This document shows, piece after piece, positions 1 through 57,998 of a stretch of DNA of 57,998 bases. Numbering within the stretch: the stretch's first letter is position 1; each line of letters opens with the position of its first letter. Below the pieces are notes generated by a model. The model ran no database searches and was not told the DNA's origin. It saw only the letters and a list, made by a program, of their open reading frames with translations. This DNA comes from a virus (taxonomy: Duplodnaviria > Caudoviricetes), in IMG/VR virus record IMGVR_UViG_3300033076_000962, positions 1-57,998 of that record. The stretch is one strand, 5' to 3'. The position numbers were made by a program, and so were the translations under genes.

Positions 1-64
1 TGATAGCACTATCTGACTTAGTGCTATCACTGGACTACTTAAAGTCCGACTATAAAAGGGTAAA
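1..64 (+). repeat. Copy 2 of early-region hairpin/leader element (begins at ~57988 across the circular junction)
   Basis: 57990-57998 + 1-11 = TAATCCAATTGATAGCACTA (identical to 57363-57382); 7-nt loop; TAGTGCTATCA at 19-29; TCCGACTATAAAAGGGTAAA at 45-64 identical to 57418-57437. Confidence 0.9.
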
Positions 65-69
65 ATACA

Positions 70-834
70 ATGAAATTGACAAAAGAGATAAAAAGTTATT
101 TGATCTCAATGCTCCGCACTGAAACCTACATCGAAACGATAAAGCCTACGATCCACGCAATCTACAACGACACGTTGGACTACATGATCCCACCGGCGTA
201 TAGACAATGCAGACGAACAAACGAAACTATAACCGATTATACCCAACTATATAAAATCAACAAACGTGACAATCCGAAAGTAGCAAAATACCTAAAAAAG
301 TATTACAGAGAAGTCGATAAAATACTAACAGAAAAAGGCTTTCCTGGCTCACAGCCTGGATATTGTCATCTGTTAGAATCAGAAAGCTTACTAAGAGCCT
401 TAACAACCTTATTTGTTAATGCCTGTATAAAAGTACTACCGGACTTAGGAGATTATACCCATGAAAAATTCTACGAAACATTAACTTACCAGAAAAACTA
501 TGATTCTTTCGTAGAGATAAACAAAAAATATTTTATCCCACAGATACCTAGAAAGGAATTTCACGTAAGTACCCCAAAAGCATTTCAGGCTGCTATTAAA
601 GCCGATAAAAAACGTCTGGGATCTGATTCGGTCCGAAGATCCTCTGAATACGAGCCACGTTCTAGGAACTTAATAGAGATAATCCATGAATATAAAACAA
701 AAGGATATTTAAAAACTCATATACCTAACGTTGCTATAAAATATTATAATCTGTTAAGAGCAACTAAAACGTATGCAACTATAAAATATAATGGAGCACC
801 AATAACTATAACACAATTAAAAGAGATGAACTAA
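70..834 (+). CDS. Hypothetical early protein (254 aa)
   Basis: Long ORF after TATAAAAGGG leader; no recognised motif. Confidence 0.8.
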   Translation: MKLTKEIKSYLISMLRTETYIETIKPTIHAIYNDTLDYMIPPAYRQCRRTNETITDYTQLYKINKRDNPKVAKYLKKYYREVDKILTEKGFPGSQPGYCHLLESESLLRALTTLFVNACIKVLPDLGDYTHEKFYETLTYQKNYDSFVEINKKYFIPQIPRKEFHVSTPKAFQAAIKADKKRLGSDSVRRSSEYEPRSRNLIEIIHEYKTKGYLKTHIPNVAIKYYNLLRATKTYATIKYNGAPITITQLKEMN

Positions 835-845
835 AAGGTATCACA

Positions 846-865
846 GAGTAGCCTACGGGCTACTC
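846..865 (+). other. Intergenic hairpin with cUACGg tetraloop
   Basis: GAGTAGCC-TACG-GGCTACTC; no U-tract. Confidence 0.7.
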
Positions 866-902
866 GATGATGCAATATAGCATCCATATAAGGGTAAACA
901 TT

Positions 903-1121
903 ATGCAAACATTCAGACTTACAGCTAAAAAATACAGTGGCGGTTACTTCATTTACTACACCGGAACTTCCCGACTAGCAGCTACATACAAAAAGTACTA
1001 TCCCGATCACTATGGAACTATAGAATTGAACGATGGAACTACTTTGTTTCCTGTCAATTCGCTGTCAGAAGCTAAAAAGCTACTAATGGAAAAAATTCAA
1101 ACTACCGGCGGTTTGCCATAA
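903..1121 (+). CDS. Hypothetical early protein; paralog of the frameshifted gene at 56767
   Basis: Start moved to ATG 903 after the ATAAGGG leader; motif GTIELNDG...SLSEAKKLLM. Confidence 0.75.
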   Translation: MQTFRLTAKKYSGGYFIYYTGTSRLAATYKKYYPDHYGTIELNDGTTLFPVNSLSEAKKLLMEKIQTTGGLP

Positions 1122-1142
1122 CTTATAAAAGGGGTAACAACC

Positions 1143-1391
1143 GTGAACACTACTATATACTTAAATAACTCTGTACATCGTTGGAAAACAGGAAACATGC
1201 TATTCGCACTTTACCAGAACGATAAACTCCTAAAAATCAAAAAGGCCGTATGTTATGAGGCGTTAGGCAACTTCGCATTGGTATGTTTCAAACTACAAAA
1301 TAAAACATATACAGCTTTTGCAAGGGGTCATGATCTTCACAACGGATTACCGATAATAGATATAGAAAGAGCAGCCCAAAGAACTCGATAA
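1143..1391 (+). CDS. Hypothetical early protein
   Basis: GTG start after TATAAAGGGG leader. Confidence 0.7.
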   Translation: MNTTIYLNNSVHRWKTGNMLFALYQNDKLLKIKKAVCYEALGNFALVCFKLQNKTYTAFARGHDLHNGLPIIDIERAAQRTR

Positions 1392-1412
1392 CTATATAAA
1401 GGGAAAAACATT

Positions 1413-1676
1413 ATGAAAATGAACATAACAGAAGATACTTTCATAGACCTGGTAAGGACAATATATAACCGCAAAGATAACTTCTCTATCGAAGGTCTAA
1501 GGCACTTATACAACTACCTAAAAGAAACCTATCCCGACCAGAATATAGACGTTATAAAACTCTGCTGTACCTACGAGGAATACTCAGAACTAGCAGAATA
1601 CTACGAAGTATACGACGATACACCTGACCCCATCATAACTTTACCTTCCGGTGGTTTTATCGTTATTAAGCACTAA
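1413..1676 (+). CDS. Conserved-looking phage hypothetical protein
   Basis: TATAAAGGG leader; NFSxEGL..LYxYL...DVIxLCCxYxEY pattern resembles a widespread phage early protein. Confidence 0.75.
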   Translation: MKMNITEDTFIDLVRTIYNRKDNFSIEGLRHLYNYLKETYPDQNIDVIKLCCTYEEYSELAEYYEVYDDTPDPIITLPSGGFIVIKH

Positions 1677-1686
1677 AGATATAAAA

Positions 1687-1875
1687 ATGACACAAGAAAC
1701 AAAACAAAAACTAGAAACATGGTACGCACCTTTAACAACTAAACAGATAAAGGCTCAAATAAGAAAATACACAACCCCAGAAGACTATGCCGAAGCTGAA
1801 TCCGCACTTGCTCAAAGATGCAACGTGCATATATCACCGGCGGTTATCCTGGAATACTTAGAAACCTTAGCTTAA
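1687..1875 (+). CDS. Hypothetical protein
   Basis: ATG 1687 preferred over upstream GTG; same operon direction. Confidence 0.6.
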   Translation: MTQETKQKLETWYAPLTTKQIKAQIRKYTTPEDYAEAESALAQRCNVHISPAVILEYLETLA

Positions 1876-1896
1876 ATTATAAAAGGGAAAACAAAA

Positions 1897-2121
1897 ATGC
1901 TACACCTAGTAGACCCAAAGCAGCTCTTACTAACTAAACTTAAATGGGTACTGATAGACACCAATATAGCTCTAAAAAATAAAGAAGGCAGCTTAGTGAA
2001 TTTCTTAAATGGCCAACGCTACGCACTAAAATTTGTACTTTACGAGGTATACGGTTTAGGCCATGACGAATCCGAAGCTATAGCCACTAGACTACGCCAT
2101 GATCTGACTAACGCGACATAG
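1897..2121 (+). CDS. Hypothetical early protein
   Basis: TATAAAAGGG leader then ATG. Confidence 0.7.
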   Translation: MLHLVDPKQLLLTKLKWVLIDTNIALKNKEGSLVNFLNGQRYALKFVLYEVYGLGHDESEAIATRLRHDLTNAT

Positions 2122-2130
2122 CCTTTCCAT

Positions 2131-2174
2131 ACCTCCCAGGCATTTTGAACGGTAGTTTGTGATGCCTGGGAGGT
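2131..2174 (+). terminator. 13-bp stem hairpin (terminator or processing site)
   Basis: ACCTCCCAGGCAT / ATGCCTGGGAGGT, 18-nt loop, T-rich downstream. Confidence 0.55.
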
Positions 2175-2210
2175 TTCAATCTTTCCTTATTCAATTATCT
2201 TGGAAAATAT

Positions 2211-2405
2211 ATGAAACACGAACTATGGAAATCTCACGGAATTATAGAACTTTCAGATCAGTTCTACCTCTTAAAAACAAAATACGGCTTTGACATGTAC
2301 GAAAATGGCCTCACTCACGCTACCAGAATAAGCATAATCGGATTCACAGGATTGCAAGGAATCAGACGAGCCAAAAAGCACCTAAAAATGAGGCTCAAAA
2401 AATAG
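2211..2405 (+). CDS. Hypothetical protein
   Basis: 64-aa ORF between two hairpins. Confidence 0.6.
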   Translation: MKHELWKSHGIIELSDQFYLLKTKYGFDMYENGLTHATRISIIGFTGLQGIRRAKKHLKMRLKK

Positions 2406-2413
2406 CCCTAACA

Positions 2414-2454
2414 CTTTGGAGGGGAAACGCAGGATCGTAGCTTCCCCTCCAAAG
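2414..2454 (+). terminator. 13-bp stem hairpin closing the early region
   Basis: CTTTGGAGGGGAA / TTCCCCTCCAAAG. Confidence 0.55.
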
Positions 2455-2614
2455 GTCATTCTCTCAAAAGCCCCACAATGCACCACAATCAACGATTTCT
2501 ACCCTACCCTACCCATACCATAGGCCAAGCCATTCAAACGTAACCCCATCGACCACGCGCCGTTACAGCAACCAACTAATCAGCTTGCCGGATGCCGACC
2601 CCGCGCCGTTACAG

Positions 2615-2697
2615 CATCAACCCAATCGACCATCCGAACATCAACCCAATCGACCATCCGAACATCAACCCAATCGACCATCCGAACATCAACCCAA
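2615..2697. repeat. 24-bp tandem repeat x3.5
   Basis: CATCAACCCAATCGACCATCCGAA at 2615, 2639, 2663, partial at 2687. Confidence 0.95.
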
Positions 2698-3032
2698 CCC
2701 CTCAACCTTCCATTTCAACAACACCTTCCCCAAAGCCTCACAATCAACGTACAGCCCGTCATCAACCGCAACCCCTACCGTTCCCTTCATCCGTTCCAAT
2801 TCCGCAACCAGTGCCCGTATAAACTCCTCCCTATTCAGATCAACCAGACTTGTAAACTTGTCAAATTCACAAACCTTCTTAGACACCGGATATTTTCCGT
2901 TAGAAAAAAATATAAATTTGACCGGCGGAATCCCTCGCTGTTTCTTCCACCGGTGTCCTGCCTTTGGCCCTGCTTTCTCATCAAAAAACAGGCTATGTGT
3001 TTTAACAGTTAAAATCATTGTTCATTTTAGTT

Positions 3033-3366
3033 AGGTGTACAAGGTGTACGCAAGGTGTACGCATTTGTACACCCATTTTCCTGAAAATTATTTTTCTAAA
3101 AAAAGTACTATAACTACTTATATATATTAAAAAAAAAAAAAAAAAAAGTTAGCTAAGTTAAAATTGAGTATGTCTAAAAGTGTACGGGTGTACAAAAATA
3201 GAGGCCCCTTTTTTTAAGTATACATTTTTCTACTTCCAGATATACATATATATGTATCCCCCCGTACACCCGTACACCTTTACACCTTACACTGTCTAAC
3301 ATATGGATATAATTCACGATAACGGAAAAACATTAGGTGTACATACCCTGTACACCTTGTACACCT
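3033..3366. other. Putative bidirectional replication origin (GGTGTAC iterons in inverted arrays around an AT-rich core)
   Basis: 17-bp IR 3033-3049/3350-3366; 14-bp IR 3180-3193/3264-3277; A19 at 3129-3147; palindrome 3242-3257; upstream of primase; skew switch. Confidence 0.75.
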
Positions 3367-3373
3367 TTGCCCC

Positions 3374-3411
3374 CCGGCTGTCATCCGGCTGTCATCCGGC
3401 TGTCATCCGGC
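3374..3411. repeat. 11-bp tandem repeat CCGGCTGTCAT x3.5
   Basis: CCGG at 3374, 3385, 3396, 3407. Confidence 0.95.
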
Positions 3412-3475
3412 ATCAAAATTTAGGCAAAAAATCGGTTGACTTACCTAGTATTACACGGTAGTACACACATATAAG

Positions 3476-3504
3476 TTGCGATATATTACTAAGTAAAGTA
3501 AACT
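3476..3504 (+). promoter_or_regulatory. Sigma70-like promoter for the replication arm
   Basis: TTGCGA-17-TAAACT upstream of the RHH gene. Confidence 0.5.
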
Positions 3505-3526
3505 AATCCATAAGTATTAATATAGG

Positions 3527-3715
3527 ATGTATATGTACGATGACATAAAAAAACCGATCACAATTGGACTACCCTTGAGCACCATTGCAGCACTGAAAAA
3601 AGTGGCTCAAGAACAGGATAGATCTATGAGCTGGTGCATCACAAAAGCGGTGCAAGAATACCTATCAAAAATACAGGCTGAAATACAGGTTGTAAAAGGG
3701 AACTATACAGCCTAG
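3527..3715 (+). CDS. Ribbon-helix-helix (CopG/Arc-like) DNA-binding protein
   Basis: ITIGLP..T.AALKKVAQEQDRSMSWCITKAVQEYL matches the RHH pattern. Confidence 0.8.
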   Translation: MYMYDDIKKPITIGLPLSTIAALKKVAQEQDRSMSWCITKAVQEYLSKIQAEIQVVKGNYTA

Positions 3716-3790
3716 CACCGGCCAAGTATCTGCCAGTAAATACCCTTCCCAATTTGATAGTTTGCCAGCTTCCAGATAGTAGGTGCATAA

Positions 3791-6214
3791 ATGACATTGC
3801 AACCACCCGACCAAGCGGAAAGCCGCGATCTTTTCGCAGCTCTAGGGTTATCCCTGATAACCGTTTCAATCCAACCTGAGAGCGATCAAGCAGTAATTCC
3901 AAGGGGCCGGTGGTTCAGCACTAAGAACAGAGTAAGGGCATTGACTCTGGAAGATTACTATTCAAGCGCCTTTCAAGATGAATTAAAAGCAGTGCAGATT
4001 TACGGGTGCGCTGTTTACTTCATGATAAATCAAGGGGATGGCGTTCCAAAAGAACCTGAAACGGGCAACTTAAACTGTGGTAGAAATGAAAACGTAACAT
4101 CTTTAAGAACTCTCTGTATTGATACAGATAGTGGCGATTGGGAAAAGTTAAAAGATAAATTATCAGAAATTGACTTAGTACCGCACTACGTTGTGGAGTC
4201 CTCTCCTGGAAAGTATCACCTATATTTTATTATTGAGCCTGAGAGCACCGGCGACGCTGACGCATTGCGAAAGTGGAAAACACTGCAAGGATACTTGAGC
4301 ACCTTGGTAGACGGCTTGGACGGATCTGTAACAAAACAGTGCCAAGTGTTGCGTATTCCTGGGTTTTACAACTTAAAACCTGGAAGAGATCCGTGGAAGG
4401 TACGGATTACAAAAAAGCTGGAATTTCCCAAGTATAACCTACATTTCCTTTATACAAAACTGAACGGAAAGGCATACGAAGAGCTAATTGTTGAGGGCCG
4501 GATTGAAGTAAACGGAGAGGAGAGAACATACACCAAGTGGGTAGAGCCTGAAGGGTATTTAAAAGAAGGGGGACGGAGGAAAGGAATCACGTCGTACATA
4601 GAACATTTGATGGAGAATCAGATCAAGCTAGATGCTGATGAAGAAGTTTACTTTGCTGCGATGGATGCGTTTATTCGCAAGAAAATTAACCCATCGGAGC
4701 AAGGAGTATTTCTGGAAGAGGGCAGCCGGAGAGAAAACTTAAAGAGCTACATTAGGGACCAGATCAAGTGGAGAATCAAGAAGAATATTCAGTATGAGAA
4801 ATTAATCGAGCACCATGAGAGTGTAAAAAATGAAACACTGCCTGATGCATTTTATCTTGGATTTCCTGGGGATTTGGGAGAGATAACTAGAGAAATACAC
4901 AACTATGCACCGGCTATATCGCTTGAAATGTGCTTTGCAGGAGCGCTGATCGTATCAGGGATGTTGAAAGGCGACTGCTTTAGGTTGCAGGGAGCGTGGC
5001 CCTACGTAAACGGAATCGTGATAGCAGGGCCGGGGGCCGGTAAGAGCACGATTAGGACGTTAGTAGAGAAAATGCTCGATGTGGGAGGGTTTAGAGGGAG
5101 ATATCCCAAGCTGCTTAAAAAACAAAACACAGTGCAATCCTTGCACACTGCCTTGTATGGGGCCGGTGGAGCAGGATGTATGCTTGTGGACGAAGCAGGG
5201 GAGTATTTGCAGACAATTACAGCTAAAAATGCCCCTGGATACGCAAAGGCACTAAGAAGCTACTTTAAGGATGCTACTACGGGTAGGTATGAGGGAGTAT
5301 CGCTACATCCTGGGGAGAGCTTGAGCTACAGGGTACCGATGCTGACCGGTGGGTTGATGATCTGGTTGATGATACAGCCTGGAGTATTTGAGCAAACTAT
5401 AAATTCCGACGATATGGCAGATGGATTCTTGCCAAGGTTTTTTATCTTTAACGGTAGGTCGGATGTGGGAATAGACGCTGATAGACATGAGGATAAACCC
5501 TACTGTGTGTCTCAGGATTTGCTGGTGCTGATGGAAGGGTATAAGAGCGTATACGGAAGCGTGGATTATAAGAAAATAGAGGCTGAAGTTGATAGGGAGT
5601 TGAGTGGAAAGAAGGTTAAGGAAGGAGAACGACTCAGTGAGATTAGAGATCGAGTGTATGAGGCTAGGTACCAGCAGAGGGTAATGTGCAGTGTGACGGT
5701 TGAGGTAGAATTTGGTGCTCAGAGCGAGATAAACGCATATATGAGCGCACAAGCTAAGGAGTTGAAGGGCATTGTCGAATTAGAAGGGGAGAGCGCAGCC
5801 AGTGCACCGGTGTACTTCAGGCTCAGGGAAATGCTGTACAGATTGATGTGCAATGCGTGTTTGTACAGAAATGGGAGGGCTGTAGTTACAAGAGAGATAG
5901 CAGAAAAGTGCATTGAGTTTCAGAAATTTCAAATGGGACGGTTCTTTGCCAAGGAGCTACAGGAACTAAGCAAAAGCAGGAGCCAGAAGGAAGAAGAGGT
6001 AGTGATTAAGGCGTTGAAGAAGGCATATAGGGAGAAAGGGGGGCCGGTTGGACTGGCTGAGATACTAAGAAAGATTGCAGCTAGGAACAGACCGTTTAAT
6101 ACACGAAAAACAGTGATGGATTTGGTAGCAGCAAAGGAAATTTGGGCAATTGAGAGAGCGCATAAGCATAGTAAGGGAACTGTAAAGGAGTATGTTCCGG
6201 TTGGGGATGAATAA
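3791..6214 (+). CDS. Primase-helicase: RepB-like AEP primase plus C-terminal P-loop (DUF3987/SF3-like) domain
   Basis: LCIDTD, VESSPGKYHLYF, VLRIPGF; Walker A GPGAGKST; Walker B LVDEAG. Confidence 0.85.
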   Translation: MTLQPPDQAESRDLFAALGLSLITVSIQPESDQAVIPRGRWFSTKNRVRALTLEDYYSSAFQDELKAVQIYGCAVYFMINQGDGVPKEPETGNLNCGRNENVTSLRTLCIDTDSGDWEKLKDKLSEIDLVPHYVVESSPGKYHLYFIIEPESTGDADALRKWKTLQGYLSTLVDGLDGSVTKQCQVLRIPGFYNLKPGRDPWKVRITKKLEFPKYNLHFLYTKLNGKAYEELIVEGRIEVNGEERTYTKWVEPEGYLKEGGRRKGITSYIEHLMENQIKLDADEEVYFAAMDAFIRKKINPSEQGVFLEEGSRRENLKSYIRDQIKWRIKKNIQYEKLIEHHESVKNETLPDAFYLGFPGDLGEITREIHNYAPAISLEMCFAGALIVSGMLKGDCFRLQGAWPYVNGIVIAGPGAGKSTIRTLVEKMLDVGGFRGRYPKLLKKQNTVQSLHTALYGAGGAGCMLVDEAGEYLQTITAKNAPGYAKALRSYFKDATTGRYEGVSLHPGESLSYRVPMLTGGLMIWLMIQPGVFEQTINSDDMADGFLPRFFIFNGRSDVGIDADRHEDKPYCVSQDLLVLMEGYKSVYGSVDYKKIEAEVDRELSGKKVKEGERLSEIRDRVYEARYQQRVMCSVTVEVEFGAQSEINAYMSAQAKELKGIVELEGESAASAPVYFRLREMLYRLMCNACLYRNGRAVVTREIAEKCIEFQKFQMGRFFAKELQELSKSRSQKEEEVVIKALKKAYREKGGPVGLAEILRKIAARNRPFNTRKTVMDLVAAKEIWAIERAHKHSKGTVKEYVPVGDE

Positions 6215-6236
6215 GTTGTTTATATAAAGGGGTATT

Positions 6237-7505: not shown

Positions 7506-7507
7506 TT

Positions 7508-8177: not shown

Positions 8178-8181
8178 ATAT

Positions 8182-9623: not shown

Positions 9624-9655
9624 CTGGCAATTATGCCAACCAACGGAGAAGAAAG

Positions 9656-9736: not shown

Positions 9737-9744
9737 ATTGGGTA

Positions 9745-50486: not shown

Positions 50487-52960
50487 ACAAAATCAGCCGG
50501 ATTAGGCGTACTACCAATATCTCCTTTTAACGAATTTTGTAATTCTTCGGTAGTAGTCCCTTCCAATAATTCCTTTGGTTGTCTTATTTTCTGTGACTCA
50601 TTTCTAGCTTTAAGCTCTACACTCAATCGCTCATTCTCAGCCTTAGCAATTACTCCCTGCTTCATAACTTCAGCTCTTGTCTTACTAGCTTCCTTAGCCC
50701 GTTCAACAGTAGCCTTAACCTTGTAATCCTTCCGTGCTTCATCCCTCTGAACCTTAAAGTCCTCTCTCTGCTGCTGCATCTGTTCAGCGGTCATCGCCTC
50801 TTCCTCTGCTGCCCTTCGTCTAATCTCAGCTTGCTGCATCTTCTGTACCCGTACCCGATTCAATTGAGCAAATTTACCCAACTGCTGCACTTGAGGCTTC
50901 ACCATCTCTACATATTGCTGGTTCAATATATCCTCTTCCAAGAACCCGACATGATCTTGAATATGAGGAATCATCAATGCAAAGTATCTGTCAGCCTCGA
51001 TAGGGTCCATCTGCTGTGCTTGAACATTCTTAATAACATCCATAGCATCGGACATGTGGCTTCCAATATGCGCCTTCTGCTGATTATCCCTAGTAGCCTG
51101 TGGCAACTGCCCACTCCTAACTACTATATTCTCCAATCTAGCAAGAGAGGCTCCTCCTTGTGCTTCATCCGGCTGCTCTGCATCCCCAAGATACCTATCA
51201 ACGTAATCAGCACCAAGACTACTAGTAACAAGATCAGACCGATAGTTATACTGTCCTTTTGCACTGAAACCCCCGGCTATCCCACCTACTTGCTTCAAGC
51301 CCATAATCAGGCCCAAGGAACTCCCGTCTCCTGCTACCCTAGCAGACCTTACTTTCAAGTGCTTAGGCAGCTTTCCCCTCTTAGCACCATTAAGTTTAAA
51401 TATCTCCTCCGGCACTCCTTCATCCATGCACCGTTCTTTCCACCTATCAAAGAACTCCCTATCAGGATGCCCCACCGGACAATGAAACTGCTTAACCACC
51501 ATCTGATACTCAAGAGTGTCAAAGGTTCTATAAAAATGATTTACAGTCTGCTTGCCTACCCCAAACTCTCTAATACTCTGCATCTGGATCTCAGGAGCCG
51601 ATTTGCTTCCTCTGTCCACATCCGGCATAGACGGGTCATCCCCACTAATCTGTGCGTTGCGATTTATCTTTCTCTCAAAGTACTGAGCTACATTTATTAC
51701 CTGACCAGTATTAGCTCCCAAGTTGTTCTGAGCCAACTTAGCAGTTCCAATGTTAGTCATGGTTCCAGGAATAAACCTGATAGGGTCTAAGTTCTGCCCC
51801 AACGTGCTAGGTGACTCAATCACCGGAGTACCGGCCATCTTAGCCATGTCCACTGTGTTACAGTCCAATTGCATCAATGCCTGACAAGCAGGGAATATCT
51901 TATGCCCTACTCCTCTATTCCCGTGGATATATCTCTCACCTGCTGAATATGTAAACGCTACTATAGCTTCTTCAAAGCACCCGTATTGCTCACTGGCATA
52001 GTACAAAAATTCATCCCCCGTAGTTCCGATAACAGGGTCAAATATCATCGTACTCACCTTTCCGCTGTACTCCTTGTAGTACAACGTACTTAGCATCACC
52101 ACGTCAGAGAAGAACGCAGCCGTATTAACAGCCCCATTCTGGATCAGCGTTTGCAAATCCAACATGTTCATAAATGCGTTCTGCGAATCCTGCTTGATTA
52201 TGTTGTTGGCTCGCATCAACAAATACTGCTCCACAGCAGCAATCTTCCAAGGTACCTTCTGCAAATCCTCATCGCTCAACTGACTCAGCATGTGGTACAC
52301 CCCCCACAAATATTGCATCGTAAAGGGTGTATCAACACACAAGTAGTCCCACTTGCTTACATTGCTGAATGTCTTATTTCCTATATAGAATCTGGAATAA
52401 TCCACCGACTCCCACTTGTAAGAGTTCTCATCCTTAAACACCACCGGAGATAAACCAAACTTAACCAACTGAGAGGCCATACTGGAGAACTCAATTGCAA
52501 AATCCCCCCATTCCTCCATTAAAATTTCAGTCCAGTGGCGAGACATCACTTCAGCCCAAGTGCTTAAATCCTGGTCATTTTGAGTTTCAAATTTGCGAAT
52601 CTCAAACTTAATCAAATAATTATTGTTGTTTATCAAATTCCAAAAGGTCAGAGCTGTCCTCTCAAACAAGCTCTTTGCATCAAGAAAGTTGGCATTGGTT
52701 ACATGATCCAGCCCTTGCGCCTTCAATTGTTCTTGGTCAAACGGAGGGTTCCCCGCAATTAATCCCTCAATCTCAGCAGCCAGATATATCCTATCCAGAT
52801 GCTCCATTCGCACATTGTTGTAATACGTCCTAGCAGCAGATACGTTTAGTATAATATTCTTGGGAGCATCCAGCTTCCCACTGCCGTTTTGAGTAATCAG
52901 CCCCCTACCGGATATACCACCAGGAGAATTAATATATCGTGTAGGGAATTGTGTATCCAT
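50483..52960 (-). CDS. Portal protein
   Basis: 825 aa; KSAPEIQ; C-terminal Gln-rich helix; position next to terminase and scaffold. Confidence 0.75.
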   Translation of the reverse strand: MDTQFPTRYINSPGGISGRGLITQNGSGKLDAPKNIILNVSAARTYYNNVRMEHLDRIYLAAEIEGLIAGNPPFDQEQLKAQGLDHVTNANFLDAKSLFERTALTFWNLINNNNYLIKFEIRKFETQNDQDLSTWAEVMSRHWTEILMEEWGDFAIEFSSMASQLVKFGLSPVVFKDENSYKWESVDYSRFYIGNKTFSNVSKWDYLCVDTPFTMQYLWGVYHMLSQLSDEDLQKVPWKIAAVEQYLLMRANNIIKQDSQNAFMNMLDLQTLIQNGAVNTAAFFSDVVMLSTLYYKEYSGKVSTMIFDPVIGTTGDEFLYYASEQYGCFEEAIVAFTYSAGERYIHGNRGVGHKIFPACQALMQLDCNTVDMAKMAGTPVIESPSTLGQNLDPIRFIPGTMTNIGTAKLAQNNLGANTGQVINVAQYFERKINRNAQISGDDPSMPDVDRGSKSAPEIQMQSIREFGVGKQTVNHFYRTFDTLEYQMVVKQFHCPVGHPDREFFDRWKERCMDEGVPEEIFKLNGAKRGKLPKHLKVRSARVAGDGSSLGLIMGLKQVGGIAGGFSAKGQYNYRSDLVTSSLGADYVDRYLGDAEQPDEAQGGASLARLENIVVRSGQLPQATRDNQQKAHIGSHMSDAMDVIKNVQAQQMDPIEADRYFALMIPHIQDHVGFLEEDILNQQYVEMVKPQVQQLGKFAQLNRVRVQKMQQAEIRRRAAEEEAMTAEQMQQQREDFKVQRDEARKDYKVKATVERAKEASKTRAEVMKQGVIAKAENERLSVELKARNESQKIRQPKELLEGTTTEELQNSLKGDIGSTPNPADFV

Positions 52961-52961
52961 C

Positions 52962-53537
52962 TTACTTGATTATCTCCTTCTGCCAGCAATTAACTTCATC
53001 ATATTTTTCCATCTGCGCTTTAGTCGGAACATCAATCTTACCATTGTAAAACACCTTCATATTCAGAGCACACTCACATACCCCACAGGTACCCAATTTG
53101 TCGTACTGCAACGTCTTATGCTTCCTTACAGAGTTAATCGCAATCAAATCCAGCCACGCCTTTACTCCCTCATTCTCCGGCATCCTGTTGTACTTGCATC
53201 CCACACATTGCAGCGCCCTCTTCTCTGCAACCTCCTGTGCAACTACACTGTCATACAAAAAGTTCTTTAACACTACGATACCTGCCTTCAACATCGGCAG
53301 TATTCCAATCTGCAACTTCTTCCCTTCACATCTGCCTACATTCTCAGGCAAAGAGCACCAATAGTTCTCCAGCACATCTTCCAGAAAATCTATTTCACTT
53401 AATCCATTCTGCGATCTATACGCCTTTATCCTAGATATTAATTGTTTTTTATTTGGTTCTTTGTATTTGTATCCGGTGTCAGGATCTCTGAATACATATT
53501 GATGCGGGCCTTGAAACGGCTTAAACTTATAAATCAT
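52962..53537 (-). CDS. Cys-rich Zn-binding hypothetical protein
   Basis: CVGC...CGVCEC...CW; GAGGGA RBS lies inside terL. Confidence 0.75.
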   Translation of the reverse strand: MIYKFKPFQGPHQYVFRDPDTGYKYKEPNKKQLISRIKAYRSQNGLSEIDFLEDVLENYWCSLPENVGRCEGKKLQIGILPMLKAGIVVLKNFLYDSVVAQEVAEKRALQCVGCKYNRMPENEGVKAWLDLIAINSVRKHKTLQYDKLGTCGVCECALNMKVFYNGKIDVPTKAQMEKYDEVNCWQKEIIK

Positions 53538-55467
53538 GAATATCCCTCAACTGATCCAAGACCAAGGGTGGTCACTTTACCAAGAGAATAAAAACGGCAA
53601 AGTCTCCTTTCTAGTTAAAACTCCATACGAAGATGACATCGGGCTTATCCAAGCCAAACATCCAGCCTTCATCCACCTAGATATTTACGCAAAGCATACA
53701 GCACCGGACACCAAGTTTCAACATCTTAAAAAAGCACGTCATTTGTTCTGGCCCGATAGAATATGGCACGACTGGACACGCAGACGCTACGAAGCCCATT
53801 GTCATAATTACAATTTCATCACACAAGCAGGAGGAGGTTCAAAAGGCAAATCCGCTGATTGGGCCGAGATAGCTACTCTCTTTTATTTCTCTAATCCATT
53901 AGAGAACAACGTAACTGTAGCCTCTACAACATTAGCTTCACTAAAGGGCCGTATATGGGGGTACATTACAGACCTAGTACGCACCATGGCGATACAGCCA
54001 AAATATACTTACAAATCCTCCCCTTCTCCCCAAATCCTACCTGTAGTACCGGATGCCAAGAAAGGAAGAGGATCAATTACTGAGGATACTCTACACGGCA
54101 TGTTTGCCGTTACAGCAAAAGTAGGCGATCCCTATACAGCAATCGCAAACTGGATTGGAAAACACCCTAAGAATAAAATTGTTATTATCTTAGACGAATG
54201 TACGGACATGCCTATATCCATTCTGGATGCTGTACCCAACCTAAACTCCCATCCTGAAAAATTCCAAATGGTAGGAATAGGTAACTCCAAATCCACACAA
54301 GACCTCCACGGCCTTTTATCCCACCCAGAGAACGGATGGGATAGTGTTTCAGTTGACCTTGATGAATGGAAAACCTCACAGTCCAATGGTATCTGTCAGT
54401 ACTTTAATCCCTACCGGTGTCCTGCGATTACAGACCCAGACCCAGAAAGAAGAAAGAAGTTATCCAAATTCTTAATAGGGAAGGAAAACCTAGAGCAGAA
54501 GGAACGCGATCTAGGAGTAGACTCTGAGAACTTCTACCGCATGGTTCTAGGTTTCTGGAAGTCTAGATCCACAGATGAGACTGTAACATCTGAAAAATTC
54601 CTAAATGATTTCTCTCCTAGAAAGAAGGTAGAATGGTCAGGGTATTTTCCCATACAGAGAGTAGCAGGGTTTGACTTTGCTATATCTTCAGACGGGGATT
54701 CACCCCTACTCAGAATAGCCAATGTGGGCCATGCAACTGATGGAACTGTAAAGGTCGATTTCTCTGGAGAATCTTCAATATTCAAATTACAGATGCTTGC
54801 CCTGGCTGATAAATCCTTTGAACTACAGATAGCTGACCAGATAATAGACTTGCTATTTAGGTACGGCGTAACAATGACCAACTTTGGTCTTGATGTCACC
54901 GGTCAGGGGAGGGCCATAGGTGAAGTTATTAGGTTAAGGAACGAACAAAAAGGGTACCCACTTGGTTTAGGTTTTCCGCTAAAGATATACGCCATGAGCG
55001 CCCACAATAAGACAAAGAGGAAGGAATCTGCATTGGATATACTTCCGGTATCCACTCATGACCTATGGAATGATATTAGAACTTACATCGAGAGAGATAG
55101 TATCCGAGGGCTTGACGAGAAAACTATTTATCAACTTACCAACAGGCTGATTATAAAGAAGAATGATAAATATATCTTAGAGTATAAACGAGACTACAAA
55201 AAGAGAATGGCAGCCAGAGGAAACGCTCATTCTCCTGACGAAGCTGACGCTACCTCTATAGTACTGCAAGTAGTCAAGCACAGGCTAGGGATCGCTCCTG
55301 GCACAGTATGGAAAGCTCCTGAACAATCTCAGGCCCAAGGGTACTTAGATAAAGTAAACGCTATGGTACGAGAACAGCAAAGGCCGGTGGTTAAGCCAGC
55401 TCTCAGGATGCCTAGTTCTAGTTTTAGTAAAGGCGGTTTAGAGAGCTACGCAAAGTATAGGCGCTAG
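53536..55467 (+). CDS. terL: Terminase large subunit
   Basis: GGGSKGKS Walker A, IILDE Walker B, GIGNS, AGFDFA, HSPDEADA nuclease motif. Confidence 0.85.
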   Translation: MNIPQLIQDQGWSLYQENKNGKVSFLVKTPYEDDIGLIQAKHPAFIHLDIYAKHTAPDTKFQHLKKARHLFWPDRIWHDWTRRRYEAHCHNYNFITQAGGGSKGKSADWAEIATLFYFSNPLENNVTVASTTLASLKGRIWGYITDLVRTMAIQPKYTYKSSPSPQILPVVPDAKKGRGSITEDTLHGMFAVTAKVGDPYTAIANWIGKHPKNKIVIILDECTDMPISILDAVPNLNSHPEKFQMVGIGNSKSTQDLHGLLSHPENGWDSVSVDLDEWKTSQSNGICQYFNPYRCPAITDPDPERRKKLSKFLIGKENLEQKERDLGVDSENFYRMVLGFWKSRSTDETVTSEKFLNDFSPRKKVEWSGYFPIQRVAGFDFAISSDGDSPLLRIANVGHATDGTVKVDFSGESSIFKLQMLALADKSFELQIADQIIDLLFRYGVTMTNFGLDVTGQGRAIGEVIRLRNEQKGYPLGLGFPLKIYAMSAHNKTKRKESALDILPVSTHDLWNDIRTYIERDSIRGLDEKTIYQLTNRLIIKKNDKYILEYKRDYKKRMAARGNAHSPDEADATSIVLQVVKHRLGIAPGTVWKAPEQSQAQGYLDKVNAMVREQQRPVVKPALRMPSSSFSKGGLESYAKYRR

Positions 55468-55853
55468 TATTTGACGTTGCCGTATTCGTCTATCTCAAAG
55501 GGCTGTTTCTTATTCTCCTTCAAGTCCTTCATTATCTGTCTTCTGTGTTTATGTACAGCGAGTCCTGCTCCTACTAAATTGATAAGAGAGCGAGTTGACT
55601 TAGCGAACTTAAATCCCTTGTGTATGTTCTTTAGGTACATCTCTGAATCTGAAAGCTCTGCTTTTAACATAGCTCTCTCAAGGTCTTGAAGGTTGAGGTA
55701 GTCGAGCTGTTCGTCAGTTACCGGCTGCTGAATGGGAGCTACCTGGAGGGAAGATACTGATTGTGATTGCAGCTCATTGGAGTTGGTAATCTCCGGTGCT
55801 GCTTTATCATAGTCATCCTCAAGTTGCATGGGCAGGTCAAAGTCGTCCGTCAT
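55464..55853 (-). CDS. Hypothetical protein, terminase small subunit candidate
   Basis: Size and position; start MTDDF preferred. Confidence 0.5.
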   Translation of the reverse strand: MTDDFDLPMQLEDDYDKAAPEITNSNELQSQSVSSLQVAPIQQPVTDEQLDYLNLQDLERAMLKAELSDSEMYLKNIHKGFKFAKSTRSLINLVGAGLAVHKHRRQIMKDLKENKKQPFEIDEYGNVKY

Positions 55854-56175: not shown

Positions 56176-56199
56176 AAACTGTAAAATAATTAAACAAAA

Positions 56200-56229
56200 G
56201 TGTCATCAGTATATTGACAGTAGTATAAT
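56200..56229 (+). promoter_or_regulatory. Candidate early promoter overlapping a TGTCA-N9-TGACA dyad
   Basis: GTGTCA-18-TATAAT; AT-rich upstream. Confidence 0.45.
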
Positions 56230-56299
56230 AGTGGGAGAGTCTGAAGAGGCGATCAAGATCGACGTGATTAAATGCGACTAAATATAAAGGGATAGCACA

Positions 56300-56656
56300 A
56301 TGCAAGTAATAAATAATAGCAAAGTAAAATATAGATCAGCATCCAGACTAATCAGTGACTCTGAGTTAGCTACGCTTAAAAAATTAGCTGAAACCGGCTT
56401 AATTGAAGAGGCTGAGGTAGTAGCTGAGTACGTACCTAACAGCTATAAGGGAGCATACAAGTTGAGCTGTCAACGTGCATTCTACTCTCACACAGAACAA
56501 TCAATCGTTATATATGATGGCAAGTTAGAAACTAGGCCATACGGAAACGGCGCACGATACAAAGCGATAGCAATATCGGATGACGCTATAACTCAATTAA
56601 AAGCGGATGGTTGGAAACTCTTGTCTAAAGCAGCTAGAACGCTGGTAAGGAGATAA
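56300..56656 (+). CDS. Hypothetical early protein
   Basis: TATAAAGGG leader. Confidence 0.75.
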   Translation: MQVINNSKVKYRSASRLISDSELATLKKLAETGLIEEAEVVAEYVPNSYKGAYKLSCQRAFYSHTEQSIVIYDGKLETRPYGNGARYKAIAISDDAITQLKADGWKLLSKAARTLVRR

Positions 56657-56766
56657 CTTTGAGGATACCGAAAGCTCTGAATACCTAGACTTTTTCGGGA
56701 GTAACTAAATAGAATTACCGTTTCAGAATCACGACTTTTACACTAAAAATATAAATGGGTAAAATT

Positions 56767-56989
56767 ATGAAGAAACATCACGATACTAAACACAACCTGC
56801 TAAAAGTAGTCAAGCGTCTAAACTTTTACCTACTCTATACCTACCCATACCCTCACTTTATAGCTGTATATTACTCAGGTATGTTAGAGTACAACGATGG
56901 TAGAATTATATATATATAATGTAGCCTCTTTAACCTCTGCTAAAAAATTAGTTATGCAAGACGTGCTACGCTCCCAAAGTACTAAATAG
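56767..56989 (+). pseudogene. Frameshifted paralog of 903-1121 (break at (TA)6)
   Basis: GMLEYNDGRIIY / NVASLTSAKKLVM lie in two frames. Confidence 0.75.
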
Positions 56990-57026
56990 AATAGAACAAT
57001 CAACTATAGTAACAAAGGCTAACATT

Positions 57027-57095
57027 ATGACCCAATTATACTACGCGACGTTAGGCGCATGTCTAACCCTAGCAATCTTACTATTGTTTATCTGA
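57027..57095 (+). CDS. 22-aa hydrophobic peptide
   Basis: AAAGG leader; MTQLYYATLGACLTLAILLLFI. Confidence 0.45.
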   Translation: MTQLYYATLGACLTLAILLLFI

Positions 57096-57113
57096 CTATA
57101 AAGGAATAACACT

Positions 57114-57365
57114 ATGAAAAGCATAAAATTAAAAACAGTAAAGGGCTATACAGCACTATCAAGAGAATTATCACGATTGGGGTTATCCGATCATGCCTTA
57201 GATCAGGATGTATTGCTAGAAGTACCCAGACTATTAGACGGTTATCCTCATACTCCATATAGTTGCGGTCCAACAATTCCATTTTGGAAGGGTAAAAACG
57301 GTTACTTTGCGTGGCCTGAAGTATCTCATGCAAAGTATGAAATACACCAATTAGTTACTAATTAA
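57114..57365 (+). CDS. Hypothetical early protein
   Basis: TATAAAGGA leader. Confidence 0.7.
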   Translation: MKSIKLKTVKGYTALSRELSRLGLSDHALDQDVLLEVPRLLDGYPHTPYSCGPTIPFWKGKNGYFAWPEVSHAKYEIHQLVTN

Positions 57366-57437
57366 TCCAATTGATAGCACTAAATCAGCTAGTGCTATCA
57401 ATTGGATTAATTAGTAATCCGACTATAAAAGGGTAAA
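57355..57437 (+). repeat. Copy 1 of hairpin/leader element: perfect 28-bp inverted repeat plus leader
   Basis: 57355-57382 / 57390-57417, 7-nt loop. Confidence 0.95.
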
Positions 57438-57440
57438 CCA

Positions 57441-57992
57441 ATGAAGAACTATATTGATATTAAAAACTCATCTCAAAAGCTTGAATTGCATGTATATTAT
57501 AGTTTAGGCGGTATGGGTTACTTTGATTATAAAGTAAAAAAACGTGGATATTACTTAGCTGTTACTCCTGTAACTATATCAGAGGATATGTTGTCATTTA
57601 CTGCTTTTTCCGGAGTATCGACTCTACTACTTGAGACAAAACGAAAAAGCGATAAAAGTTACAAGGAAGCTTGTACACTCGCAGACTCGAAAAAACAGGA
57701 ATTGATCGATCACGTATTAGACAAGCTGGACGAAACCAGAAATGGCAAACAAGTATCAAAAGAGATAGGAATCTCTATTCCTCCAAGATACTACGCACTA
57801 TCAAAAGATGAGATACTAGGTTTACCTGTTCAAGTAGTCACTATCGCTGGATATTGTGAGTATCCCGACTTAGAGACTGCCAAACGTAACCATAATTTAA
57901 ATAGTCTAAATGGCGCACTGTATGGACAAATAAAAGGAATGGATGCACTAAGATTCGAGGATTCGGCGACTAGTAAAGCACTGTCTGAGTAA
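57441..57992 (+). CDS. Hypothetical early protein flanked by the two repeat copies
   Basis: YYSLGGMGYF...RGYYL.V.PV motif; stop codon lies within the repeat. Confidence 0.8.
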   Translation: MKNYIDIKNSSQKLELHVYYSLGGMGYFDYKVKKRGYYLAVTPVTISEDMLSFTAFSGVSTLLLETKRKSDKSYKEACTLADSKKQELIDHVLDKLDETRNGKQVSKEIGISIPPRYYALSKDEILGLPVQVVTIAGYCEYPDLETAKRNHNLNSLNGALYGQIKGMDALRFEDSATSKALSE

Positions 57993-57998
57993 TCCAAT

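Follow-up and report, generated by a model that had tools for sequence, protein, structure and literature searches.

The window, which is the whole 57,998-nt stretch of phage DNA analysed here, carries genes on the plus strand in its left arm (1-22450) and on the minus strand at 22451-53537. The gene set was built greedily from the longest ORFs of at least 50 amino acids, with five ORFs removed and two added by hand. A replication and recombination module on the plus strand (13830..19491) comprises a DUF2800/PD-(D/E)XK exonuclease, a Gp2.5/Enc34-type ssDNA-binding annealing protein, a family A DNA polymerase and a RuvC-like resolvase. Also on the plus strand is a gene, here termed GT-MTase (11291..12625), in which an N-terminal GT92/GT2 glycosyltransferase is joined to a C-terminal Methyltransf_24 domain (residues ~280-444; Pfam PF01697 6.8e-20, PF13704 9.8e-18, PF13578 2.1e-9). 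It adjoins a second glycosyltransferase-like gene (12595..13317, plus strand), which has a weak match to NCBIfam TIGR04440 (E 1.7e-4, below the cut-off) and whose orthologues in the related phages G001 and G002 match PF00535. Among solved structures, the C-terminal domain of GT-MTase is closest to small methyltransferases and SAM-dependent O-methyltransferases (E 2e-6 to 1e-3), and judged by its sequence the protein is not recognizable as a DNA methyltransferase. Indeed no DNA methyltransferase, hydroxymethylase or other base-modification gene was recognizable among the 73 ORFs of the window, in agreement with what the original prediction had said of methyltransferases; any writer of a DNA mark would thus come from outside the phage.

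Over-representation of CCGG

The original prediction held that the palindrome CCGG is over-represented across the genome, and the full count bears this out. The tetramer occurs 161 times compared with ~112-115 expected: the zero-order expectation at the 42.2% G+C of the window is 115.3 (11.9 per 6 kb) and that of a second-order Markov model 112.1, with a z of +6.35 for the latter, the top value of all 256 tetramers. The hand counts behind the prediction proved exact, both for CCGG (25 in 1-6000, 15 in 22450-28500 and 21 in 47000-53000) and for the rare CGCG (4 in the first of these intervals and 1 in the second), while GGCC is, as claimed, about half as common as CCGG (14, 7 and 11 in the three intervals, and 89 overall). 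CGCG and GCGC number 24 and 70, respectively, in the full window. The CCGG sites are dispersed over the entire record (1..57998; 20, 17, 9, 12, 13, 14, 15, 12, 7, 19, 17 and 6 per 5 kb) with spacing that is near random but slightly even (CV 0.85 versus 0.99±0.08 for random placement). The excess is not due to repeats, since 160 of the 161 32-mer contexts around CCGG are distinct.

All but three of the sites (158 of 161) lie inside ORFs, where 106.8±8.3 are expected after synonymous shuffling within genes (500 shuffles, maximum 131; z ~6.2-6.3) and 115.8±5.2 when dinucleotides are also kept (maximum 135; z 8.1). Neither codon nor amino-acid usage accounts for the excess: under shuffles that preserve both, the z values of 6.2 and 8.1 stay far from the zero that would have spoken against the original prediction.

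The enriched unit is a longer, asymmetric word

The palindrome itself, however, is not the favoured unit that it had been taken to be. What is enriched is an asymmetric GCCGG-containing word, chiefly YACCGGC (GCCGGTR on the opposite strand); the excess is confined to this flank class, and elsewhere CCGG is at or below expectation. CCGG sites without a CACCGG flank number 91 compared with 90.7 expected, and those lacking both favoured flanks 13 compared with 39. CCSGG and NCCGGN palindromes are depleted in the window, GCCGGC being absent where its own flank frequencies predict 15.2 copies. YACCGGC/GCCGGTR occurs 58 times on the two strands, about once per kb, and in ORFs (both strands) its 57 copies compare with 8.0 after synonymous shuffling (z 19) and 14.6 after dinucleotide-preserving shuffling (z 13.8). 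For ACCGGC/GCCGGT the observed 71 compares with 12.6 under the synonymous shuffle and 13-21 across nulls. CACCGGC makes up 34 of the 72 ACCGGC sites (34 in 58 kb, or ~590 per Mb), three of the 34 being CACCGGCA.

GCCGGTR lies on the plus strand in 18 copies (3906..55389; starts 3906, 5036, 5162, 6766, 7903, 9874, 11498, 12251, 13971, 17642, 19941, 22067, 26597, 29104, 36078, 36117, 46025 and 55383) and on the minus strand, reading YACCGGC on the plus strand, in 40 (191..55725; starts 191, 1103, 1835, 3716, 4246, 4908, 6673, 17309, 19147, 20603, 21124, 23226, 23820, 26451, 26463, 27762, 28760, 30730, 30801, 32235, 32439, 32991, 33536, 34325, 34700, 35765, 37447, 38748, 40802, 41503, 43880, 45164, 45371, 45521, 46465, 47886, 48892, 49122, 51829 and 55719). 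The left arm holds 12 on the plus and 11 on the minus strand; at 22451-53537 the numbers are 5 and 28, the word being 5.6-fold commoner on the coding strand of this right arm. Synonymous positions are used: Ala-Gly is written GCC-GGT 34 times (3.6 expected) and Pro-Val CCG-GTG 12 times (1.9 expected). GCC represents 12% of Ala codons, yet 34 of the 130 Ala-Gly pairs are GCC-GGT, with the two silent positions co-chosen. Both CCGGTG (observed/expected by codon frame 12/2.1, 26/4.4 and 4/0.3) and CACCGG (2/0.5, 12/4.0 and 15/3.4) are enriched in all three frames, and the excess is thus at the level of DNA rather than translation.

It could be argued that the excess is a compositional by-product, in which disfavoured CpG and avoided words push the remaining CpGs into a few permitted contexts, CCGG among them, at fixed codon usage. 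Cross-codon CpG is indeed low (705 versus 893 expected), and among the ten NCGN contexts significant depletion affects five (TCGA, CCGC, CCGA and GCGA, with ACGA milder; 0.55-0.89 of expectation), with GCGC at a non-significant 0.86, three contexts near 1 and CCGG at 1.5. A large number of 6-mers hardly occur at all (CTGCAG 0 versus 27, CAGCTG 0 versus 23, AAGCTT 3 versus 20), and many 4-6-bp palindromes are avoided in the classical restriction-avoidance pattern. When 120 avoided words were kept from exceeding their observed counts, the null for CCGG rose from ~105 to 130±9 (8 chains), and about half of the bare CCGG excess could be such a by-product under this constrained null. It should be emphasized, however, that the same null still falls ~3 sd short of the observed CCGG and yields only 18±4 copies of ACCGGC/GCCGGT (71 observed), 12±3 of YACCGGC (57 observed) and 19±4 of CACCGG/CCGGTG (71 observed), so that for the 6-7-mers this explanation is largely refuted; the dinucleotide-preserving shuffle likewise leaves z at 8-14. 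Two relatives, G003 and G004, are similarly poor in CpG (observed/expected 0.66 and 0.73), yet their CCGG is depleted. As an account of the whole pattern, a by-product is unlikely.

In E. coli, very-short-patch (VSP) repair is active on phage DNA and alters how often given oligonucleotides occur. A host with an HpaII- or MspI-type CCGG methylase and Vsr could convert T:G mismatches in CTGG/CCAG (or TCGG/CCGA) to CCGG, and in the window the CCGG z of +6.4 is accompanied by values of -4.8 for CTGG and -4.4 for CCAG, which are weaker in G001 (-2.3 and -2.6). The basics of such repair are outlined in PMC12907096. The simple Vsr signature, however, is not supported. The transition neighbours of the enriched word are not depleted (ACTGGC/GCCAGT 23 versus 18; ACCAGC/GCTGGT 29 versus 28; ATCGGC/GCCGAT 19 versus 15), nor is any other single-base neighbour of ACCGGC in the window, and there is thus no sign of a deamination-repair route. 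The CTGG deficit falls in other words (CTGGG 23 versus 53, AGCTGG 8 versus 27), CTGG and CCAG are as low in the CCGG-depleted G003 (-3.3 and -3.2) and close to zero in G007 and G002, where CCGG is enriched, and VSP repair cannot account for the co-chosen flanking silent T of GCC-GGT. We regard this route as very unlikely.

Word usage among related phages

The window and eight relatives (G001-G008) have a conserved gene core in common. By synonymous shuffle, CCGG is enriched in four of the nine records (window, z +6.3; G001, +6.2; G007, +8.5; G002, +8.3) and strongly depleted in three (G003, -6.0; G004, -4.5; G008, -8.2), the others being neutral (G005, +1.6; G006, -0.3). Enrichment is thus specific to parts of the phage family and not intrinsic to it. 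The enriched unit common to the four is GCCGG (observed/expected 98/46 in the window, 134/53 in G001, 61/16 in G007 and 185/85 in G002). GCCGGC, which the window lacks, is enriched in G001 (17/6.5), G007 (9/2.1) and G002 (51/11.6), and the preference for a CACCGG flank is 71/15 in the window versus 23/12 in G001. Individual CCGG sites are not conserved between the window and G001, its nearest relative: across 34 orthologue pairs 18 sites are shared compared with 12.8 expected if independent, at a same-codon rate of 47.4% (40.9% expected) and near-saturated divergence. This turnover fits a density-type force (selection or repair bias) rather than fixed functional sites, and the retention of CCGG by selection inferred in the original prediction is not demonstrated by it.

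The comparison also bears on the earlier proposal that GT-MTase, alone or with the neighbouring glycosyltransferase, modifies CCGG-type sites that are then kept as a mark. The window is the only sampled record in which Methyltransf_24 is fused to a glycosyltransferase and it has the strongest CACCGG bias; a PHROG family labelled DNA methyltransferase also matches GT-MTase weakly, over residues 364-411 only (E 2.7e-7). Against this, the domain most closely resembles small-molecule O-methyltransferases, and GCCGG is enriched in G001, G007 and G002, whose sampled sequence is devoid of it (by tblastn the domain found no match in the first 60,000 bases of G001, G002 and G008 or in the sampled G003-G007). 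A full-length homologue of the fusion (locus L021, residues 18-441) resides in the CCGG-depleted G008. The lack of a base-modification gene in the window, and the avoidance of dozens of restriction sites, which argues against broadly protected DNA, make a phage-encoded writer the least probable of the explanations considered.

Discussion

The observations comprise the statistics of the word, its independence of frame and strand, the turnover of its sites, its spread among relatives and the absence of a phage C5 methyltransferase (PF00145 has no match in any of the nine records). Tentatively, at somewhat less than an even chance, we read the word as an iterated one that the host imposes, equivalent in a virus to the alternative highly iterated palindrome (HIP) rCCGGy. 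As described for Oscillatoria PCC 10802, rCCGGy serves as an alternative HIP, the commonest 8-mer is CACCGGCA (O/E 32), the word extends to cACCGGCa/tGCCGGTg and the genome has gained an orphan rCCGGy-specific 5-methylcytosine methyltransferase (Elhai 2015, Life 5:921, PMC4390886). The window has the same core, with GCCGGT/ACCGGC enriched and the 5' extension cACCGGC, mainly in coding DNA and unexplained by codon usage; ACCGGT, which is not among the over-represented forms given there, stands at 10 versus 7 expected. GCCGGC is likewise enriched in relatives (G001, G007 and G002), although not in the window itself. The 3' 'a' of the extension, however, is not common to the window, which is without a resident methyltransferase, and the word lies here in a virus, whose host may not be cyanobacterial, rather than in a cyanobacterial chromosome. 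The 4-7-fold enrichment is also well below that of the Oscillatoria 8-mer and HIP-level enrichment in general, which counts against an iterated word, and the coding-strand bias of the right arm is not predicted by a purely strand-blind process.

Similar to HIP1 (GCGATCGC) of cyanobacteria, the word is short, holds a putative methylation site and is hyper-abundant across genes in non-preferred codons. The window itself contains no HIP1 (GCGATCGC 0, CGATCG 0). From one genome to another, HIP1 sites keep their positions more often than control words do, and whether mutation bias or selection drives them is debated (Xu et al. 2018, PMC5861425). In contrast, the sites shared by the window and G001 are barely above background codon conservation. 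The sole host lead, a related terminase in two of 124 genomes, from the phylum of a Bdellovibrionales-titled MAG, points away from the iterated-word reading: CCGG is neutral in samples of both genomes (z -0.3 and 0.0), none of the 124 reaches the CACCGGC density of the window (at most ~390 per Mb), and genome G012 had no PF00145 or PF03852 match.

A possible but rather doubtful alternative is that the phage is under direct positive selection to carry YACCGGC/GCCGG for recognition by a protein of the host or its own, either as a Chi-like signal in recombination or nuclease attenuation or as a 'self' password in host surveillance, with many copies beneficial wherever placed. An asymmetric word of 5-7 nt, GC-rich in a genome of 42% G+C and evenly dispersed, which is bought at silent sites with rare codons co-chosen in Ala-Gly pairs, is what such selection might produce; none of the neighbouring words falls short of expectation, which would follow if every path to the word were favoured, and turnover with density maintained is the prediction of a density-type signal. 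Bobay and colleagues are said to have provided a precedent in 2013 for host words enriched in phages. We know of no reader protein for YACCGGC/GCCGG, however, and its preferred flanks differ among close relatives. Lambdoid phages with 20-32 Chi sites likewise carry an asymmetric, GC-rich and, in their case, host-recognized word far above chance and unexplained by codon usage, but as described their sites are almost all in one orientation (20 versus 3; 32 versus 0) and cluster near one end of phages without their own recombination genes (PMC12315714). In the window the word is dispersed and, in the left arm, balanced between strands, and the phage encodes an exonuclease, an annealing protein and a resolvase of its own.

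Like the restriction-site-avoiding phages described by Rusinov et al. (2018, PMC6286503), the window avoids 4-6-bp palindromes, including NCCGGN and CCSGG, and three of its relatives avoid CCGG itself; unlike simple avoidance, CCGG inside GCCGG/YACCGG words is enriched. In the iterated-word reading, it is our inference that the force is host-borne and involves methylation, and so is the kind of host. A host enzyme would mark the word, and methylation-linked repair bias, or weak selection for host-like DNA, would keep creating copies while old ones decay; GCCGG words, above all YACCGGC, have built up at silent positions irrespective of frame or strand. CCGG outside these words is purged, as are CCSGG and the 6-bp palindromes that enclose CCGG, like the other restriction-type sites avoided here, and the full palindrome GCCGGC may be removed by a further restriction pressure from the phage's own host.

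Results

CCGG is over-represented through silent positions

The window, an entire IMG/VR virus record, is linear, with an estimated completeness of 92%, a G+C content of 42.2% and a CpG observed/expected ratio of 0.59 over its 57,998 bases. Rightward genes (1-22,464, + strand) encode a RepB-type primase/helicase, an SNF2 helicase, glycosyltransferases, a DUF2800 exonuclease, a Gp2.5/Enc34-type ssDNA-binding protein, a family A polymerase and a RuvC-like resolvase; leftward genes (22,444-53,537, - strand) encode a 2025-aa virion protein, a 696-aa protein with a lytic transglycosylase domain, tail proteins and a likely capsid and portal, and the likely terminase lies at 53,536-55,467. No tRNA genes were found in the window. 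The 2025-aa protein (22444-28521, - strand) carries a GNAT acetyltransferase domain at residues ~400-485, has no PHROG match and is only 27% identical to its homologue in the related phage record G001. The tail-fibre-like gene at 44172-45914 (- strand) contains an internal repeat, an identical 32-mer with longer identical context, whose copies lie 207 bases apart at ~45164 and 45371. Positions 1-74 resemble 57372-57445 (80% identical, direct) and an overlapping inverted stretch at 57359-57400 (86%), a likeness that terminal or regulatory repeats may have left behind.

The original prediction held that CCGG is over-represented across the genome, and every one of its hand counts proved exact on recount. 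The tetramer occurs 161 times, against 115 expected at zero order or 112 under a second-order Markov model (z +6.35, the highest of the 256 tetramers), and most other 4-bp palindromes are low (GATC z -5.5, TGCA -4.4, CTAG -4.0). The excess also withstands the codon- and amino-acid-preserving shuffle by which the prediction had proposed to be judged. Synonymous shuffling within genes gives an expectation of 106.8±8.3 (z 6.2; the maximum of 500 shuffles was 131), and a shuffle that also keeps dinucleotides gives 115.8±5.2 (z 8.1), such that CCGG itself, at z +6.2 to +8.1 against codon-preserving expectation, does not display the under-representation of an avoided restriction site.

Inside ORFs lie 158 of the 161 sites, 83 of them in the frame xCC|GGx, 57 in CCG|Gxx and 18 in xxC|CGG, and the excess sits at synonymous positions. 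Among the 130 Ala-Gly pairs GCC-GGT is used 34 times against an expected 3.6, though GCC is a rare alanine codon, and other codon pairs are similarly raised (TCC-GGT 11 versus 2.5, ACC-GGC 10 versus 2.6, CCG-GTG 12 versus 1.9, CCG-GCT 10 versus 3.6). The contexts of the sites are distinct in 160 of 161 cases.

The favoured unit is an asymmetric word

The proposal that the palindrome CCGG is the unit under selection did not survive division of the sites by flank. The hexamers around CCGG are dominated by ACCGGC/GCCGGT (72), followed by ACCGGA/TCCGGT (44) and GCCGGA/TCCGGC (25); the palindromic forms ACCGGT (10), TCCGGA (1), GCCGGC (0) and CCCGGG (0) are few, when the flank frequencies of the window would yield 28.2 ACCGGT, 8.3 TCCGGA and 15.2 GCCGGC. 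Against 300 synonymous and 300 dinucleotide-preserving shuffles, the asymmetric heptamer YACCGGC (or GCCGGTR), observed 57 times, had expectations of 8.0 (z 19) and 14.6 (z 14), respectively. Corresponding values were 12.6 and 20.6 for ACCGGC/GCCGGT (71 observed), and 13.7 and 20.3 for CCGG sites with a CACCGG flank (67 observed). Sites without CACCGG, at 91, match their expectations of 90.7 and 95.4. The pattern of restriction-site avoidance is seen in CCGG with neither a YA nor a G flank (13 observed; 39.4 and 35.5 expected), in the palindromic hexamers around CCGG (11; 24.8 and 22.4) and in CCSGG (9; 33.2 and 29.3). This breakdown shows that the tetramer excess is wholly the shadow of the asymmetric GCCGG/YACCGG word, and that bare CCGG behaves as an avoided site.

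A Vsr/very-short-patch pump at CCGG, which would raise the word while lowering its T:G deamination products, is attractive at the tetramer level, where CTGG (z -4.8) and CCAG (z -4.4) are both low, but it fails at the enriched word. Of the 18 single-base neighbours of ACCGGC, none shows clear depletion, and the transition neighbours stand at or above expectation (ACTGGC 23/18, ACCAGC 29/28, ATCGGC 19/15). The CTGG deficit resides instead in other words (CTGGG, AGCTGG), and the CTGG and CCAG deficits do not track CCGG enrichment over the nine phage records compared below.

Enrichment of the GCCGG/YACCGG word extends to each of the three frames and to either orientation, so that the cause acts on DNA rather than on translation. 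The word is dispersed over the full record with near-random, slightly even spacing, and exhibits neither clustering nor clear periodicity. In the left arm (1-22450, genes on +) GCCGGTR is balanced between the strands, 12 versus 11; in the right arm (22451-53537, genes on -) 28 copies lie on the coding strand versus 5. A Chi-like word, which would attenuate a nuclease or promote recombination, is expected to hold a single orientation relative to the DNA end or ends. The right-arm skew is not matched in the left arm, and that balance disfavours such a role, as do the scattering of the sites and the recombination genes that the phage itself carries. In the passages of PMC12315714 that describe Chi-rich phages, orientation is 20 versus 3 and 32 versus 0, the reverse of the window in orientation, placement and recombination genes.

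The longer word exceeds a null constrained by avoided words

Numerous words are avoided in the ORFs of the window, among them CTGCAG (0 versus 27 expected), CAGCTG (0 versus 23), AAGCTT (3 versus 20), GCTAGC (0 versus 10), GAGACC (0 versus 10.6), GAATGC (0 versus 8.8), GGACC (7 versus 24.5), CTTAAG (1 versus 10.7) and GTTAAC (1 versus 12.3), and in the whole window, counting both strands under a dinucleotide model, CTCGG is found 11 times versus 48. Cross-codon CpG is also low (705 versus 893 expected), with five of the ten NCGN contexts (TCGA, CCGC, CCGA, GCGA and ACGA) significantly reduced, at 0.55-0.89. In a constrained Markov-chain shuffle (8 chains of 250,000 proposals), in which 120 avoided words were held at or below their observed counts, the expectation for CCGG rose to 130±9, and thus about half of the bare CCGG excess could be a side effect of avoided words. 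The 6-7-mers remain far above this null (ACCGGC/GCCGGT 71 versus 18±4 expected, YACCGGC 57 versus 12±3, CACCGG/CCGGTG 71 versus 19±4), indicating that the longer word is favoured in its own right.

Two further biases were observed on the coding strand of ORFs: TTTT is depleted (182 versus 335, z -9.5), and words of the AGCA/CAGCAG/AGCAGC kind are in excess (AGCA 513 versus 381).

Some relatives share the word, and its sites turn over

Relatives were recovered through peptide-pattern scans of IMG/VR and a glycosyltransferase alignment, in which 8 of 80 loci carried at least three window proteins. The family is large and uncultured, with genomes of ~50-65 kb present in many metagenome assemblies; a terminase search of public assemblies returned 85 matches at E<=1e-30, many on 50-64-kb contigs. 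The closest relative, G001 (60.4 kb), is 74% identical to the window in the polymerase and 78% in the terminase. Nine records were compared, the window included (the first 60,000 bases of G001, G002 and G008, a 12.8-kb fragment for G007, and the others whole), and all have in common a structural and replication core that is conserved at 25-45% identity.

Based on crude ORF calls and 100 synonymous shuffles per record, with which Markov statistics agree, the z-score of CCGG is +6.3 in the window, +6.2 in G001, +8.5 in G007, +8.3 in G002, +1.6 in G005, -0.3 in G006, -6.0 in G003, -4.5 in G004 and -8.2 in G008. The excess that the enriched records share is in GCCGG (observed/expected 98/46 in the window, 134/53 in G001, 61/16 in G007 and 185/85 in G002). 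The window, G001 (35/7.2) and G007 (7/1.5) also have YACCGGC in excess; G002 does not, and piles up the palindrome GCCGGC instead (51/11.6). As GCCGGC is also enriched in G001 and G007, the window seems to combine the GCCGG enrichment of its family with a purge of GCCGGC that is its own. The terminase tree places the records enriched for CCGG in two supported pairs, (window, G001) and (G002, G006), with depleted or neutral records elsewhere; in G006 itself CCGG is not enriched, only WGCCGG (z 4.3) and, weakly, GCCGG (z 2.4).

Avoided 6-mer sets differ even between the window and G001 (AAGCTT 3 versus 43, TGTACA 21 versus 1; GATC 159 versus 77), which suggests that the two have met different host restriction repertoires. 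The distribution of the word and of the avoided sets among relatives points to pressures that depend on the host and not on phage machinery. No window gene was found that is common to all enriched relatives and missing from all depleted ones.

Across 34 orthologue pairs of the window and G001 (10,133 aligned codons, of which 6,666 encode an identical residue), codon choice agrees in 47.4% of cases versus 40.9% by chance, and CCGG is shared at conserved dipeptides 18 times versus 12.8 if independent. Sharing is thus barely above independence: individual sites are not fixed, and it is density that persists. The substitution partners of CCGG between the two phages were uninformative because silent sites are nearly saturated.

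Some homologues in the family may be interrupted. Five terminase homologues (P0124, P0128, P0142, P0161 and P0178) are 916-987 aa long instead of ~640, and four of them contain homing-endonuclease/intein-type domains (PF05204, PF14528), P0124 being without a recorded Pfam domain; their length and domains suggest inteins or inserted endonucleases. The polymerase homologue of G006 (G006:C1:30769-33531) comprises two matching pieces ~870 bases apart within a single 941-aa open frame, with one TAG inside the second piece, and may likewise harbour an inserted element or intein.

No phage-encoded writer tracks the word

The original prediction had recognized no DNA methyltransferase in the window, and indeed none of the 73 ORFs matches a DNA methyltransferase family. 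It had offered as one possible writer the product of the gene at 11291-12625 (+ strand), here termed GT-MTase. This protein joins a GT92/GT2 glycosyltransferase to a Methyltransf_24 domain, and the closest solved relatives of that domain are small-molecule O-methyltransferases; the domain is absent from the enriched G001, G007 and G002, and a full-length homologue is present in the CCGG-depleted G008. On the type of domain and its absence from enriched relatives, GT-MTase was rejected as a credible writer.

C5 methyltransferases (PF00145) were found in none of the nine phage records. A Pfam scan of G001 and G002, covering 69 of 114 ORFs (the 45 with clear window orthologues were set aside), revealed adenine methyltransferases, no C5 enzyme and no gene that would tell the host. 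The adenine DNA methyltransferases of G001 and G002 (D12 class and Dam family; PF02086, PF05869), together with a Cpn10 co-chaperonin of G001, lie at L007:4660-5574, L007:13473-13946, L008:978-1283 and L092:14869-15321; the window has neither an adenine methyltransferase nor Cpn10. GATC is strongly avoided in G001 (77 versus 198) despite these enzymes. No DNA methyltransferase domain tracks the enriched word across the phages, and a word-specific methyltransferase resident in the same genome, as goes with the rCCGGy variant of the highly iterated palindromes (HIP) of cyanobacteria, was not seen in the phage records.

Leads to the host

No cultured phage stands near the window: megablast of the 6-kb virion gene found no match among cultured phages, and tblastn of terminase and portal none in 50,697 deposited phage records. 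The polymerase has its best matches, at 27% identity, in Pseudanabaena phages, too weak to name a host; matches of the exonuclease are scattered over many hosts, and the primase gave, among plasmids, one weak Deinococcus match. A protein atlas returned viral clusters only. Sequencing runs comprised one full match without a label and four at <=0.20 of sampled words (three flagged as small shares) from soil, aquaculture and lake water, and provide no evidence of habitat. A thermophilic host was rejected on the IVYWREL fraction, 0.367.

A scan of genome contigs identified a single related terminase, 41% identical, which lies on a 40.9-kb contig in a MAG with the title 'uncultured Bdellovibrionales bacterium' (G012), and a profile search of the 124 genomes of its phylum added a second strong match (G060) and one weak one. 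Sequence sampled from the two MAGs (246 kb and 240 kb) and their phage-like contigs are neutral for CCGG, none of the 124 genomes approaches the CACCGGC density of the window, and G012 has no PF00145 or PF03852 match. MAG binning uses composition, which makes the GC and CpG likeness of phage contig and bin circular. Since the contigs are as distant from the window as its depleted relatives, and the association by binning is weak, they are poorly informative about the host of the window. The only pointers to a cyanobacterial host are the likeness of the word to HIP and the kinds of sites that the phage avoids.

Discussion

The over-representation of CCGG in this phage is real and robust, subject to two corrections of its interpretation: the unit is an asymmetric GCCGG-type word, and GT-MTase is not a credible writer. 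YACCGGC and ACCGGC/GCCGGT display the many-fold, genome-wide over-representation against composition and codon nulls that characterizes HIP. In the passages of Elhai (2015, PMC4390886) on Oscillatoria PCC 10802, HIP1 is not abundant, and rCCGGy is instead highly over-represented as GCCGGC, GCCGGT and ACCGGC; the most frequent 8-mer is CACCGGCA, extended as cACCGGCa/tGCCGGTg, and the genome encodes an rCCGGy-specific m5C methyltransferase of the DmtD type. Elhai proposed a GmeC-dependent mismatch-repair ratchet. The top words of the window (CACCGG 72, ACCGGC 72, CACCGGC 34) match this pattern closely. ACCGGT, which is not among the over-represented forms named in those passages, is not enriched in the window (10 versus 7). 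The window differs, however, in the 3' 'a', in a fold enrichment below the published O/E of 32, and in its lack of GCCGGC, a form over-represented both in Oscillatoria and in G001, G007 and G002. A second pointer in the HIP direction is hinted at by GCGATC/GATCGC, half of the cyanobacterial HIP1 octamer, which occurs 25 times versus 9.8 expected (third-order Markov; ATCG z +6.1); CGATCG and HIP1 itself (GCGATCGC) are absent from the window. A limited search of the literature on CCGG over-representation in phages and on HIP1 with cyanophages revealed no HIP-type word in a phage, and the HIP1 passages of PMC9239245, which also mentions cyanophage, have no bearing on phage genomes.

Our tentative preference is for a HIP-like iterated word imposed by the host, alongside which the palindromic forms are subject to ordinary restriction avoidance. 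A host force would favour the making of the word by any route and would act on its density; candidates are a methylation-linked repair ratchet and weak selection that favours a host-like mark. Direct selection for a recognition word, which the present data do not separate from an imposed one, appears doubtful. It is unlikely, although it could be argued, that the heptamer is a genuine password, in which a host system reads GCCGG/YACCGGC as 'self' and the lineage of this phage has come to carry copies of it at silent positions; the reader might then be an uncharacterized methyl-directed repair system, or a nuclease that spares word-bearing DNA. According to the HIP1 passages of PMC5861425, the choice between mutation or repair bias and a read mark has been open for HIP1 since the 1990s.

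Loss of short palindromes is a familiar trait of phage genomes. Here a CpG-containing word has been driven, through silent sites, to one copy per kb, an effect of the opposite sign that stands beside classical avoidance of the word's own palindromic forms. In annotation work, it is therefore advisable to split a tetramer excess by flank before interpreting it. Were the password reading true, this would be the first HIP-type iterated motif in a virus, phage sequence alone would reveal the recognition word of a host surveillance or repair system, and HIP-like words would have a function open to exploitation by phages. If the word mirrors an iterated motif of the host, it would provide a sequence-only handle on the host of an uncultured phage family and a natural test of the origin of HIP-type words, as repair bias or read mark, for which relatives that range from enriched to purged offer ready-made contrasts.
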